From: an uncultured Methanosarcinales archaeon
GTDB lineage: Archaea; Nanobdellota; Nanobdellia; Woesearchaeales; GW2011-AR4
DNA: 64,000 bases
NCBI GenBank assembly: GCA_964650285.1
Contig: CAZYSP010000001.1
Location: 13,169 to 77,168, forward strand
Reading direction: 5' to 3'
Of the stretch, positions 10,087 through 60,420 are shown piece by piece. Within the stretch, counting starts at the first letter, position 1. Each line of letters starts with the position of its first letter. Both the position numbers and the translations under genes were made by a program. Under the pieces are notes generated by a model. That model searched no databases. It worked only from the letters and a program-made list of their open reading frames with translations, and had not been told where the DNA came from.

Positions 10087-10399
10087 AAACAATAAAAACT
10101 AATTAACAATAATTACAGTAAATAATAATAAAAAATAATGAAATAAAATGGAAGAAGAGTATAATTGGAAAGCTATCTTAATAGGGGCGATACCTGTTTC
10201 TATAGTTATGGCTATACTTTATTATTCTAATATTGCCAGAGGAGTTATAAACTTTATTTGATAATTGGAATTTTAATTGCAATGGGCATAACATATTATT
10301 TTGACAAGAAAAAGCACAATATTTTTACATCTGCATTTGTAGTTCTTATTGTTGCTTTGATAGTTTATGGGCTGAAAATCTATGGTCTTCTTTAGATAA

Positions 10400-10532
10400 C
10401 GGGCTGTGCCAGAGCGAACTTAAGCCAAAATACTAATTTTAATATAAGATTTTTACATACTTTTGCCCACCCCACCTCCCCGTGAATTGCGAGCGACTCG
10501 CAGTCGCTCGTCGCGTTCACTAGGCGCAGCCC
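10400..10532. mobile_element. 133-nt intergenic element 'A' (cGGGCTGTGCC ... GGCGCAGCCC): 10-nt terminal inverted complement, 7-bp flanking direct repeat TAGATAA; MITE-like or structured ncRNA
   Basis: Termini GGGCTGTGCC (10401-10410) and GGCGCAGCCC (10523-10532) are fully complementary, including one G·U pair. TAGATAA sits at 10393-10399 and 10533-10539. An internal GC hairpin is at about 10484-10510. Its 5' 30 nt and a C-rich 3' block match element B at 53212..53352. Confidence 0.55.
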
Positions 10533-11065
10533 TAGATAAAATCACTTATCTTGTGCTTTATTTCTTCATGCCAGAGCCATGCTAATAATATTATTGCATC
10601 AATTCCTGCAAAAAAATTACGACTAACATTTTGCAACAAATTTAATCCATATGTTGTATTAGAAAATGGATAAAAGAACATTATTCCGTAACCTGCAAAT
10701 AGGAAATCAAGGGATATATGAAATAAAATTCCAAAACATACAACAAAAAAATACATAGCTTCTTTATGTTTTTTATTATGCCATAGAATAAGTCCAGGAA
10801 TTAAAAAAATTAATGCAAATAAGGGTGTATGTGTAATAGTTCCATGACCTATGCTTAACCCAAAAAAGTTAAGAAACCAGTTTAATGGTAGGTCTATATC
10901 AGGCAATAAACCAGCTAAACCAGCAATAAAAATAGTATGCAAAGTAAAGTACTTCTTATGCTTTGCAAAATAATCCCTATAAAGATCAACTAAAATTATT
11001 GCTAATAAAACATGGGTTACTGCAAAGGACATGCTTAAAAAATCCTCCGTATTTTTTGGCACCAC
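10532..11065 (-). CDS. Membrane-bound metal-dependent hydrolase (YdjM/DUF457-like)
   Basis: A multi-TM protein with His/Asp motifs ('HVLLAII','HGTITHTPLF','HISLDFLF'). The first base of its TAG stop is the last base of element A. Confidence 0.45.
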   Translation of the reverse strand: MVPKNTEDFLSMSFAVTHVLLAIILVDLYRDYFAKHKKYFTLHTIFIAGLAGLLPDIDLPLNWFLNFFGLSIGHGTITHTPLFALIFLIPGLILWHNKKHKEAMYFFVVCFGILFHISLDFLFAGYGIMFFYPFSNTTYGLNLLQNVSRNFFAGIDAIILLAWLWHEEIKHKISDFI

Positions 11066-48046: not shown

Positions 48047-48209
48047 TTTTATTAAACAATTATTACGGAAACAAAAGAGAATTATTTTGTCTCCAGCATA
48101 GACAAGCTAGTGAATTCAAATTCGCCAGAATTTATGGCGAGCCACTAACCGATCTATCTCTTGATGGAATTTGGAATTATTAGGGGGTTTATAAATGTTA
48201 TTGAAAAGT

Positions 48210-48312
48210 AGCCCTGCCAGGACTTTCAAGCCATACCTTGCAAGATAACGGCGTTCGAACCTGGGTCTCCGGCTCCAAAGGCCGATATCCTTGACCGCTA
48301 GACTACAGGGCT
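48210..48312 (-). tRNA. tRNA-Gln (anticodon UUG) with a putative ~31-nt non-canonical intron in the T-loop
   Basis: Minus-strand read: AGCCCTG-TA-GTCT-AGCGGTCAA-GGAT-A-TCGGC-CTTTGGA-GCCGG-AGAC-CCAGG-TTCGAA[CGCCGTTATCTTGCAAGGTATGGCTTGAAAG]T-CCTGG-CAGGGCT. Acceptor, D, anticodon and T stems all pair once the bracketed insert is removed. Confidence 0.55.
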
Positions 48313-48428
48313 GTAAGTTAATGACATCAAAGCTGATTTATAAAATTATCTATGGAGGGATTTTGATGTAGACCAAAAACAAGTGCTGAAGTAGTTAATG
48401 CTTATAGAATATTTTTAATATCTAAGCC

Positions 48429-50896: not shown

Positions 50897-51040
50897 AATA
50901 GGGTAGAAGTTAAGTATTATTTATAATATTAATCCAAAACTACCTATAACAGTATACTAAAACATATATTTTCTACTCTAGAAATGTTTAAATATTATCT
51001 TGCAAATATATATAGAATATAAAAAAACCTAATTTGAGTT

Positions 51041-52506: not shown

Positions 52507-53169
52507 TTATTTCTTTCTTAACCTTTTCTCAACATGCTCTTTAATCTTTTTTCCTGTCTTTTTTGCTAACTTCTTGCCCTCATCTACAATCCTTGCATTG
52601 TAAGCAGACCACCAGCCCATATGTGTTTTTGGTGCTTCTAAGCGGCCCCACCATGTTTCAGAAAATGTCATGTGCTCTATTCTGTATTTTGGTGGTGGTG
52701 CTGGGGCTTCATCTGCATAGCCTATTGTTATAATACCTTGTACGGTTTTTTCTTCTGGCAGATTTAAAATGCGGAAAATTTCATCTTCATCAAAAGCGCC
52801 TACCCAGCAGGCTCCCAACCCTAAGCTATGGGCTGTAAGCAACATGTTTTGTATTGCGGCAGCACATCCCTGTATTGTGTATAATCTTGCACCTCTTGTT
52901 CCATAATAACGTTCAGCTTTTTCAGGCTCAGCAACTACAACAATGTAAACTGGAGCAATTTCCATCCATTCCTGTTGTAAGCAGGCATTTGCAATGGCTT
53001 TTCTTTTTGTATCACTTTTAACATAAATAAATTTCCAGTTTTGCAAGTTGCCGGCAGAAGGAGCATATTTGCCTGCTTGCATTATAGTGACAATATTATC
53101 CCAAGGAACCTGCTTATCTTTATATTTCCTTATACTTCTTCTTGTTCTAATTGCTTCAAAAACTTCCAT
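52507..53169 (-). CDS. Nitroreductase-family (FMN-dependent) oxidoreductase
   Basis: 'RRSIRKYKDKQVPWD', 'GACWVGAFDE'. Confidence 0.75.
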   Translation of the reverse strand: MEVFEAIRTRRSIRKYKDKQVPWDNIVTIMQAGKYAPSAGNLQNWKFIYVKSDTKRKAIANACLQQEWMEIAPVYIVVVAEPEKAERYYGTRGARLYTIQGCAAAIQNMLLTAHSLGLGACWVGAFDEDEIFRILNLPEEKTVQGIITIGYADEAPAPPPKYRIEHMTFSETWWGRLEAPKTHMGWWSAYNARIVDEGKKLAKKTGKKIKEHVEKRLRKK

Positions 53170-53211
53170 GTTGCATATCCTTTGATTAATTATTAATAAA
53201 TTTATTGTTTT

Positions 53212-53352
53212 GGGCTGTGCCAGAGCAGACTGAAGTCAAAATGCTGCATCTTGATACCATTTTGCAGATATTATTTGGTTATAATACACAGCATTTTATT
53301 TGTAGTCATTGCTTTATTTTCCCACCCGCCACCCCTAAATTAGGCATAGCCC
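53212..53352. mobile_element. 141-nt intergenic element 'B', second copy of element A (GGGCTGTGCC ... GGCATAGCCC)
   Basis: The first 15 nt are identical to A and about 25 of 30 match. A C-rich 3' block 'CCCACCCGCCACCCC' corresponds to A's 'CCCACCCCACCTCCCC'. The terminal 10-mers pair (G·U and U·A at positions 6 and 7, where A has G·C and U·G). Confidence 0.5.
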
Positions 53353-53414
53353 TTGGGGATTATTATTTTATTTGCATAGATATATTTTTATAGTATATAA
53401 TATTGTAATTTGAT

Positions 53415-55166
53415 ATGCAATACTCAAAGCTTGTGGATGTGTATGAGAAGCTGGAAGGTACAACAAAGAGGCTTGGGCATACTCATATTATTTCAGAGTT
53501 TCTAAAGGATATAGATGTTGATGATTTGGGAACAACAATTTTGCTGCTGGAAGGAAGGGTTTTTCCAAGATGGGATGAAAGAGAGACTGGCATGGCATCA
53601 AAAATGATGCTTAAGGCAATAAGCGTGGCATCTGGTGAAAGCAAAGAAAGGATAAATTCAGAATGGAAAAAAACAGGGGATTTAGGAACAGTTTCCCATA
53701 ATTTAATTAAAAAAAAGAAGCAGCATACTTTAAAAGCTTATGAGCTTACTGTAAAAAAGGTTCTTAAAAACTTAAGACAAATTTCTACAATTGAAGGCAT
53801 GGGTTCTGTTGACAAGAAAATATCCCTGGTAGCAGAGCTATTAACATCGGCAAAACCTAATGAGGCAAAATATATTGTAAGGACAATTCTCAATGATATG
53901 CGCATAGGTGTTGGAGAGGGGAGCATAAGGGATTCTATTGTGTGGGCTTTTTTTGGCAAGGAACTTGAGGTAAAGTACAATAAAGAAGAAAACAATATTG
54001 AGATTGAAGACAGAAAAAAGTACAATGAGTATGTTGGGGCTGTACAAAAAGCTTATGATGTTACAAATGATTTTGCGCCTGTGGCAGAAGCAGCAAAAAA
54101 ACACGGACTTAAAGGACTTGAGGAATTGGAAATGAGTATAGGGATACCTTTGAAGGTTATGCTTGCGTTAAAAGTTGAGGATATTGACGAGGGTTTTGAA
54201 AGGTGCGGAAAGCCAGCGGAATTTGAGTTTAAATACGATGGCATGAGGATGCAGATACATAAGGACGGTAAGGAAGTAAAGATATTTACAAGAAGACTGG
54301 AAAACGTCACTAATCAGTTTCCAGAAGTTGTTGATTATGTAAAAAAATATGTTGATGAAAAAAAGGTTATTCTTGATTCTGAGGCAGTTGGTTGCAGTAA
54401 AAAAAGTGGAAAATATCTGCCATTCCAGAAGATTTCACAAAGAATAAAGAGAAAATATGACATTGAAAAAATGTCAGAAGAATTGCCGGTTGAGGTGAAT
54501 GTTTTTGATATAATAAACTATAAAGGCAAAAGTGTTGTCAATAAGGTTTTTGAGGCAAGGAAAAAAATAATTAAAAAAATAATTAAAAATGTGCCGAAAA
54601 AAATCAAGGTTGCAAAGAGTATTGTAACTGCAAGTAAAAAAGAAGTTGAAAGCTTTTACAAAGAGGCAGTTGATTCTGGAAATGAGGGCTTAATGATCAA
54701 AAATCTTGACGCACCTTATAAACCAGGTGCAAGGGTTGGATTTATGTGTAAATTAAAATCTGAACAAGAGGCATTTGATTTGGTAATAATTAAATCTGAG
54801 TGGGGTGAGGGCAAGCGCTCAAAATGGTTAAGCAGTTACACTCTTGCATGCAGAAATAAAGACCAGTTTCTTGAAGTTGGCAAGGCAAGCACCGGGCTTA
54901 AGGAAAAAAGAGAAGAAGGTTTAAGCTTTGCAGAAATGACAGATTTACTCAAACCCTTAATAAAGAGAGAGGAGGGAAAAGAAGTTACAGTAAAGCCAAA
55001 GGTTGTAATAGAAGTAGGTTATGAAGAAATTCAGAAAAGCCCCACTTATAGTAGCGGTTATGCTTTGCGCTTTCCCAGAGTTTTAGTCCTGCGCCGAGAT
55101 AAATCTCCAAATGATGCAACAACATTAGATATGATTAAAGAGGCTTATAGAAAGCAAAAGAAGTGA
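53415..55166 (+). CDS. lig: ATP-dependent DNA ligase
   Basis: Adenylation motif 'EFKYDGMRMQIH' (KxDG) and a 583-aa archaeal ligase layout (DBD, AdD, OBD). Confidence 0.9.
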   Translation: MQYSKLVDVYEKLEGTTKRLGHTHIISEFLKDIDVDDLGTTILLLEGRVFPRWDERETGMASKMMLKAISVASGESKERINSEWKKTGDLGTVSHNLIKKKKQHTLKAYELTVKKVLKNLRQISTIEGMGSVDKKISLVAELLTSAKPNEAKYIVRTILNDMRIGVGEGSIRDSIVWAFFGKELEVKYNKEENNIEIEDRKKYNEYVGAVQKAYDVTNDFAPVAEAAKKHGLKGLEELEMSIGIPLKVMLALKVEDIDEGFERCGKPAEFEFKYDGMRMQIHKDGKEVKIFTRRLENVTNQFPEVVDYVKKYVDEKKVILDSEAVGCSKKSGKYLPFQKISQRIKRKYDIEKMSEELPVEVNVFDIINYKGKSVVNKVFEARKKIIKKIIKNVPKKIKVAKSIVTASKKEVESFYKEAVDSGNEGLMIKNLDAPYKPGARVGFMCKLKSEQEAFDLVIIKSEWGEGKRSKWLSSYTLACRNKDQFLEVGKASTGLKEKREEGLSFAEMTDLLKPLIKREEGKEVTVKPKVVIEVGYEEIQKSPTYSSGYALRFPRVLVLRRDKSPNDATTLDMIKEAYRKQKK

Positions 55167-60241: not shown

Positions 60242-60293
60242 TTAAAAAAACAATCATAACGACGTAGGGCCTCGTAAAGCGACACACCCCAAG

Positions 60294-60420
60294 CAACGAC
60301 GCAAAACCATTGATTATTGATTAATAATAATTTTTTAATGAATAATGAAATTTAAGTGGAAAATAAAATAATGAATTAACAAATAATTGTGAATGTCAAA
60401 ATAAAAAATTTAATGGAAAA
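60294..60420 (+). repeat. Conserved intergenic element with GC cores (M-c/M-d copy 3)
   Basis: 'CAACGACGCAAAACCATTGATTATTGATTAATAATAATTTTTTAATG...AAAATAAAATAATGAATTAACAAATAATTGTGAATGTCAAAATAAAAAATTTAATGGAAAAATG', ending at the rpl18e ATG. Confidence 0.6.

Follow-up and report, generated by a model that had tools for sequence, protein, structure and literature searches.

An intergenic repeat of marine Woesearchaeota is probably a MITE-like mobile element with co-varying termini

The MITEs of prokaryotes include archaeal representatives, namely the SM1-SM4 elements of Sulfolobus. Modular, structured intergenic repeats are also represented by ERIC/IRU, the Correia elements of Neisseria, and the BOX and RUP elements of pneumococci, for which the debate between selfish DNA and an RNA or regulatory role is open. 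REP/RAYT and IS200/IS605-derived PATE sequences are built differently again, with short subterminal hairpins, no terminal inverted repeats or target duplication, and a fixed tetra- or pentanucleotide target. DPANN archaea have very small, tightly packed genomes that are usually described as poor in mobile DNA, and nothing was found in the literature searched for MITEs or structured intergenic repeats in Woesearchaeota/Nanoarchaeota (DPANN). Here we describe element B, a 141-bp unit on the + strand (positions 53212-53352) of a 64 000-nt stretch of archaeal DNA with a GC content of 34% (hereafter the window). Element B is an insertion between two promoters, and we consider it likely to be a copy of a non-autonomous, MITE-like mobile DNA element specific to marine Woesearchaeota (DPANN); its status as an RNA gene is not proven. 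As far as Rfam and the searched literature extend, the family is previously undescribed: non-coding, hairpin-forming and MITE-like, in the small genomes of marine Woesearchaeota.

Element B lies, as the preliminary description stated, between the divergent genes for a nitroreductase (52507-53169, - strand) and an ATP-dependent DNA ligase (53415-55166, + strand). It had been taken for a second copy of element A (10401-10532, + strand), and this identification holds, with similarity extending beyond the 15-mer that first linked the two. Within the window, the 15-mer GGGCTGTGCCAGAGC has exactly two occurrences, at + strand positions 10401 and 53212, against a chance expectation of 0.03 from shuffled sequence (none of 100 shuffles reached two occurrences). 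In addition, A and B are identical at 26 of their first 30 nt, one more than the approximate count given earlier, and their C-rich blocks, at 10466 and 53321, are the only such blocks in the window. In B, the left terminal repeat GGGCTGTGCC (53212-53221, + strand) forms the 5' arm of a terminal helix, P1, and the right terminal repeat GGCATAGCCC (53343-53352, + strand) its 3' arm, with a G.U pair at position 6; this helix covaries in the family. The left repeat is followed by a conserved 5' subterminal block AGAGCAGACTGAAGT (53222-53236, + strand; family consensus AGAGCGGACTTTAGN), for which no covarying partner was found, and by a hairpin, P2 (53238-53297, + strand), whose base pairs AAAATGCTG (53238-53246) with CAGCATTTT (53289-53297) beneath a 42-nt AT-rich apex, the variable module. 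The 3' block (53292-53352, + strand), of a length that is near-constant at 61-63 nt in nearly all copies, contains the C-rich block CCCACCCGCCACCCC (53321-53335, + strand; family consensus CCCACCCRCCTCCCC), which is predicted to be unpaired. The terminal 10-mers of A also pair (GGGCTGTGCC with GGCGCAGCCC, with a U.G pair at position 7). As described before, B lacks a GC-rich hairpin that A carries in addition (10482-10520), and the AT-rich middle is longer in B; P2 is short in A. The additional hairpin is a 39-nt palindrome, GTGAATTGCGAGCGACTCGCAGTCGCTCGTCGCGTTCAC, which occupies the place of TAAATTA in other copies. No part of the window is richer in GC, and no further copy of the palindrome was found among the aligned family members.

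A 62-aa ORF runs across B (53205-53393, + strand), recurs at L002 9791-9979, and was called as a gene by the JGI pipeline on one contig. A protein-coding B was rejected, since the ORF has no Pfam match and its frame is lost in other copies; indeed, the apex lengths found in the family (below) break any reading frame, so that the family is non-coding and this ORF is probably an artifact of gene prediction due to the repeat. A small - strand ORF after the G-rich tract is present in some subtypes only. At least 22 marine metagenome contigs (TARA, JGI, Logan) encode the ligase protein, and the ten that were compared show no difference in the B region (100% identity), which indicates a clonal population and makes this comparison uninformative. 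In a relative (L099 1808-4579), the same ligase is a 923-aa protein with intein and LAGLIDADG matches, that is, an intein-containing version.

Further copies were gathered by a 5'-anchored scan, a scan anchored on the C-rich block, and nhmmer. The 5'-anchored scan, which used the 15-mer plus NNACT against one genome per species, gave true copies in three AT-rich MAGs, two of them named Nanoarchaeota/Woesearchaeota and one labelled Methanosarcinales (35% GC), together with chance matches in unrelated bacteria. The metagenome scan anchored on the C-rich block, with the 5' end left free, added 18 copies, and nhmmer two more divergent ones; B itself is matched by the family profile at E=5e-34. The family thus comprises at least 27 distinct copies, including A and B, at about 23 independent sites, with lengths of 96-195 bp. 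All copy-bearing contigs are marine and AT-rich (29-38% GC), and homologs of the flanking proteins carry the names Woesearchaeota or Nanoarchaeota. Three cores in one genome, CSMAG_1410, share 93-98% identity, pointing to recent amplification. A search of 98 kb from five relatives (L098-L104) detected no member of the family. Against Rfam, the window gave no match at the gathering threshold, and the best scores for A and B at E<=10 were 9-19 bits, compared with gathering scores of 36-124.

The limits of the unit are exact, with GGGCTGTGCC at its start and GGCAYAGCCC at its end. All copies share one layout: the 10-bp terminal helix P1, a conserved 30-nt 5' block including AGAGCGGACTTTAGN, the hairpin P2, and the 3' block, which holds CCCACCCRCCTCCCC and ends with CCCACCCRCCTCCCCTAAATTA and the 3' arm of P1. 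The base of P2 is fixed (AAAATG/CATTTT), and its apex, which can be swapped or lost freely, occurs in at least four unrelated versions, of 4, 13, 28-30, 49-51 or 103 nt. Besides the GC hairpin before the 3' arm in A, an extra hairpin follows AGAGC in three copies (L062, L049b and L050).

The preliminary description proposed that the terminal difference between A and B was compensatory. This is not the case: the P1 consensus has G-C as its sixth pair and U-A as its seventh, and each copy differs from it by a single one-sided transition to a wobble (C>T in B, giving G.U; A>G in A, giving U.G). True compensation is present within the family, away from the A/B difference. Across 27 copies P1 is 97.8% paired and 5 of its 10 pairs have changed on both sides: positions 1-2 are GG/CC, TA/TA or AA/TT, position 6 is G-C, A-U or U-A, positions 3 and 4 show one change each, and position 9 is U-A in L049b, a change left uncounted by the tool because that cell is gapped in the automatic alignment. 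The covariation score is 0.191 compared with 0.091 in shuffles, none of 500 shuffles was as high, and the signal is lost when the partner columns are slid. Thus, the suspected constraint on terminal complementarity is borne out, and the independent mutation of the 10-mers that was sought in further copies did not appear. In P2, two pairs have changed on both sides, the seventh pair being C-G, U-A or G-C across copies. An all-against-all column scan for partners of the junction blocks (AGAGCGGACUUUAG and the C-rich block) returned covariation in P1 alone. Matched changes in both termini are not expected from selection for protein binding to double-stranded ends; termini that covary to stay complementary imply that the ends pair in a single-stranded state, DNA or RNA.

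Further evidence on the nature of the unit comes from filled and empty sites in close relatives. At the B locus, the start codons of the nitroreductase and ligase genes are 245 nt apart in the window and 82 nt apart in L098, which has the same gene order, a nitroreductase 86% identical to that of the window, and no element. Its empty site corresponds to the window flanks joined (...AATAAATTTATTGTTTT|GGTAGATATATTTTTAAAG..., with the junction ..TTTATTGTTTTGG|TAGATATA..), and L101 is empty at this locus as well. B44T1L10, by comparison, is filled at the same junction with a copy of a very different subtype (L049b), and spacer arithmetic with this copy gives about 12 nt duplicated (42+52-82). The presumed left copy of the target duplication at B, TTTATTGTTTT (53201-53211), is recognized from the L098 empty site and overlaps the upstream edge of the putative nitroreductase promoter. 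On the other side, the alignment of the window with L049b and L098 suggests a filler of about 10-13 nt, TTGGGGATTATTA, followed by a decayed and degenerate right copy, TTTTATTTGCA (together 53353-53376). At the A locus, the duplication is clear: the window reads TAGATAA (10393-10399), C, the element, and TAGATAA (10533-10539), whereas L102, whose YdjM is 88% identical, has overlapping convergent genes and a single TAGATAA (...TTTTTC TAGATAA AATCAC...). L103 and L104 are likewise empty. The earlier statement that no clear duplication is visible therefore needs correction, as a duplication exists in both cases, plain at A, and decayed and visible only against the empty site at B. At a third locus it is the window that is empty (50929-50945), and B44T1L10 carries a 96-bp copy (L049:3686-3781) in the methylase-FtsZ interval; here the alignment gap coincides with the element, and about 9 further nt are duplicated according to spacer arithmetic.

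More generally, direct repeats in the flanks of 22 copies exceed in length those of mismatched flank pairs (p=0.0002 by permutation). The unit is shown to be gained or lost as one block between close relatives, with a target duplication of about 7-12 bp; the individual lengths are 7-8, about 9 and about 12 nt, at sites that have diverged by 10-15%, and in several copies a filler of 1-17 nt separates the repeat from the element end. Empty sites together with flanking duplications mark the P1-bounded unit as a discrete, MITE-like insertion, but duplications of variable length with filler would not be expected from one DDE transposase whose stagger is fixed. Across the 22 copies, no conserved nucleotides flank the 5' end. 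Orthologous copies also persist between species, in three pairs (A/L038, B/L049b and L070/L090), and all P1 changes between their members preserve the structure. L070 and L090, the one pair whose members share a subtype, are 91% identical (by eye, about 13 of 142 nt differ) compared with 87-88% for their flanks (BLAST), indicating weak constraint in place. The B44T1L10 ortholog of the A locus (L038 1815-2060, compared with window 10345-10540) is filled, but with other junctions and another P2 module: it has 17 nt of filler on the 5' side and a longer duplication (TTACTCTAGAT/TACTTTCTAGAT). Separate insertion events at a hot spot could account for this difference, as could recombination in which one copy replaced another; the B/L049b pair is likewise of different subtype.

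The preliminary description had left the terminal constraint as one of "RNA or TIR". The empty sites at three loci, the target duplications and the near-identical cores in one genome favor the second part, the terminal inverted repeat of a mobile insertion, although the unit may also have a role at the RNA level. With 96-195 bp and no coding capacity, 10-bp inverted termini, and dispersed copies with three filled/empty loci, the family has the makings of a MITE. According to this reading, an enzyme supplied in trans would mobilize the element, the conserved terminal and subterminal blocks serving as its cis signals, and either mobilization or a later function would need the two ends base-paired in single-stranded DNA or in a transcript. 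Element B would have landed between the back-to-back promoters of two apparently leaderless genes, moving their start codons from 82 to 245 nt apart and keeping both promoters intact. The family departs from a textbook MITE in its apparently variable duplication length with filler and in its covarying termini, and also in that no autonomous partner was found: neither termini 0.5-3 kb apart nor a transposase turned up in about 0.5 Mb of Woesearchaeota-type loci plus the window, and the viral collection gave no partner or transposase either. In addition, long unpaired blocks are strongly conserved across species, which could point to an RNA or host function instead.

The one gene bracketed by two 5'-type ends, in L050, was considered as an autonomous unit and rejected, as it is protease-like and no transposase. 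There, a solo 5' end (about 29 nt, 693-721, + strand) and a full copy (1756-1930, - strand) face each other across a 316-aa ORF which, by eye, looks like a serine protease of the HtrA type (GNSGGPL). A perfect 15-bp inverted repeat (GGCTTCATCCAAAAA/TTTTTGGATGAAGCC) in turn encloses the full copy, and a related outer repeat is found in L046. In CSMAG_1410, the three copies share 30-45 nt past the 3' terminus (TGTATACTTAACAAGTTTACTTTACA...; L043 276-320, L048 5574-5603 and L056 669-713). A promoter-like AAAAATTTATAAA follows this stretch in two of the three, 71 nt before the next start codon, and in L056 an inverted counterpart of the stretch lies upstream. The shared stretch may belong to a second repeat family, or to a longer variant within which the element is nested. 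A further contig, L081 (1-1285), is of visibly higher GC and begins and ends with the same stretch of about 143 nt, which would fit a circular or tandemly repeated molecule; the stretch contains CTTTATTTTTGTATTCCCACCCACCTCCCCTAAATACGGCATGGGGCC, which resembles the family 3' block beyond the search pattern, with no 5' partner visible.

The alternative that survives best, although we regard it as unlikely, is that the family consists of small structured RNA genes encoding trans-acting sRNAs, in which P1 closes the molecule, P2 is a variable arm, and the unpaired C-rich block (CCCACCC / CACCUCC / CCUCC) is a seed for G-rich, Shine-Dalgarno-like sequences, the genes having spread by duplication or mobility. 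A covariation-supported secondary structure, as is asked of structured RNA families, is present in P1 and at the seventh P2 pair, but the same pattern would arise from pairing in single-stranded DNA and so is not specific to RNA. Both A and B fold far more stably than shuffled sequence on the + strand (z-scores of -6.6 and -4.8, respectively) and less well on the - strand. Where the members of the three orthologous pairs differ in P1, the change always leaves either a G.U wobble on the + strand or a compensated pair. Over all copies and helices, however, mismatches amount to about five G.U and about five A.C, the latter being wobbles on the - strand only, so that wobble bias picks neither strand as the transcribed one. 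The unpaired blocks are more strongly conserved than the stem sequences, and GGAGG, GGGTGGT or GGGGTGA, complementary to the C-rich block, stand upstream of some start codons in the window. On the other hand, an RNA gene fits poorly with the lack of any Rfam match even at E<=10, with the way in which the unit is clearly gained or lost, as an insertion flanked by a target duplication, with the relatives that do without the element, and with the constraint on L070 and L090, which is weak. A T lies next to the 3' end in 15 of 22 copies (by eye), but T runs after this end are inconsistent and no typical oligo-T terminator was found. The TTTATAAA boxes upstream were rejected as a promoter of the element itself, since their spacing suits the divergent neighbor genes and not a start at element +1. 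Many copies begin 39-48 nt from the start codon of the divergent gene, a space taken by the TATA box of that neighbor, leaving no room for a promoter of their own at the usual distance.

Mobility and an RNA function may also be combined. The element might be a mobile structured RNA gene, or might move via a single-stranded hairpin or "panhandle" with paired ends and an enzyme not yet linked to DPANN transposition; its transcripts would expose a tandem anti-Shine-Dalgarno mimic (CCCACCC..CCUCC) acting on translation. The variable-length duplications with filler and the covarying termini lend support here. We give this possibility a small chance only. If true, the mobile RNA-gene reading would make the family an archaeal analog of a SINE that doubles as a regulatory sRNA. 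That the mobilization or RNA biology of the family is new has a similarly modest chance.

A role in cis seems still less probable. It has been proposed for ERIC, REP, BOX and Correia elements that such intergenic structures were recruited by the host as a transcript stabilizer, terminator, insulator or promoter spacer, and selection for this role would then keep the pairing; the present copies would be hairpins lying between promoters or in the 3' ends of mRNAs. The placement of the copies agrees with this. The elements fill the whole intergenic space: between the 5' end and the start codon of a divergent gene there are typically 39-48 nt, which puts the element directly against the BRE/TATA region of that gene (it abuts the neighbor promoter in about ten copies), and the 3' end is separated by 0-18 nt from a convergent stop codon (ten copies) or lies 52-80 nt upstream of a co-directional start codon. 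Some copies also lie within a further outer inverted repeat, such as the 15-bp repeat in L050, and orthologous copies are kept between species with structure-preserving changes. Yet relatives with the same gene order lack the element at all three loci tested, and the typical oligo-T terminator is missing. The sites comprise seven divergent, one convergent, eight tandem with the element antisense and four tandem with the element sense; thus, both orientations relative to the flanking genes occur, with no significant strand bias relative to host transcription, and the seven copies in divergent regions are transcribed by neither neighbor. Finally, that the likeness of A and B is due to chance or local duplication, with no family behind it, is refuted for practical purposes by the 0.03 15-mer matches expected and by the 25 further copies elsewhere with the same architecture.

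Several known identities were also considered and rejected. The 5' block resembles the D-arm of a class II tRNA (GCCGAGCGGTCTAAGGC), but a tRNA, split tRNA or tRNA-like sequence does not fit: there is no T-arm, the GCC pairs with the 3' end and covaries at position 9, Rfam was negative, and ARAGORN found no tRNA in A or B. Elsewhere in the window, ARAGORN missed a likely tRNA-Gln(UUG) gene (48205-48315, - strand) with the acceptor AGCCCTG/CAGGGCT, the anticodon loop CTTTGGA, the T-arm CCAGG-TTCGAA...CCTGG, and a TTTATAAA box 24 nt upstream; an insertion of about 31 nt lies in its T-loop, a non-canonical intron position. Directly after tRNA-Leu(GAG), at 60243-60310, an A run is followed by a relatively GC-rich stretch, ACGACGTAGGGCCTCGTAAAGCGACACACCCCAAGCAACGACGC, to which no ORF is assigned. 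For 5S rRNA, SRP RNA, RNase P RNA, Y RNA, C/D or H/ACA guide RNAs, K-turns and ribozymes, Rfam gives no support, and copy number and modularity do not fit. A viral origin was dismissed because all 27 matches of the 15-mer in viral contigs lie in unrelated GC-rich DNA without further similarity.

The family shows that a selfish or semi-domesticated element of 100-200 bp can spread, outlast speciation and split promoters in genomes as compact as these, and its profile provides a marker of strain-level genome plasticity. The family also accounts for some breaks in assemblies and for erroneous predictions of small ORFs, among them the 62-aa "gene" across B. Furthermore, its covarying termini raise the question of whether the ends pair in DNA or in RNA.

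Among known systems, a REP/RAYT or IS200/IS605-derived PATE identity was rejected, given the inverted termini, the target duplications and the lack of conserved 5' flanking nucleotides in this family. IS6/IS26 elements, a family common in archaea, have termini starting GG..CTGT.GCAAAG and an 8-bp duplication. A likeness is possible, in that the termini described here start with GG and contain CTGT, and the duplication at A is 7-8 bp; however, no IS6-type transposase was seen near any copy, and the duplications at the other loci look longer (about 9-12 nt). The bacterial sRNAs RsaE/RoxS and the CcsR "cuckoo" RNAs carry C-rich, anti-Shine-Dalgarno-like sequences, which in CcsR are the loops CCUCCUCCC. 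Like them, the present family is multi-copy, small and predicted to be structured, with an unpaired C-rich motif that is conserved and could pair with ribosome-binding sites, but its C-rich block lies in a long junction instead of a hairpin loop, and it spreads by insertion with target duplication. In its workings the element is like the MITEs of prokaryotes. With them it shares small size, lack of coding capacity, multiple intergenic copies, terminal inverted repeats, short target duplications, presence/absence polymorphism and folding into a long hairpin. It differs from them in that no autonomous IS sharing its ends was found, the inverted ends are just 10 bp long and covary, the two subterminal regions are mutually unrelated and strongly conserved, the duplication length is apparently variable with filler, and the host is a genome-reduced DPANN archaeon. 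Compared with ERIC, Correia, BOX and RUP, it has no sequence similarity and belongs to another domain of life; none of these families is known to have a counterpart of the C-rich single-stranded block, and nothing here points to a promoter facing outward or to a site for protein binding like the IHF site that Correia elements carry. Nevertheless, it resembles them in its length of about 100-200 bp, its pairing conserved ends, its internal modules that come and go or are repeated, its position near promoters and gene ends, and its persistent orthologous copies. The modular, structured and partly immobile character of the family comes closest to that of ERIC, Correia, BOX and RUP.
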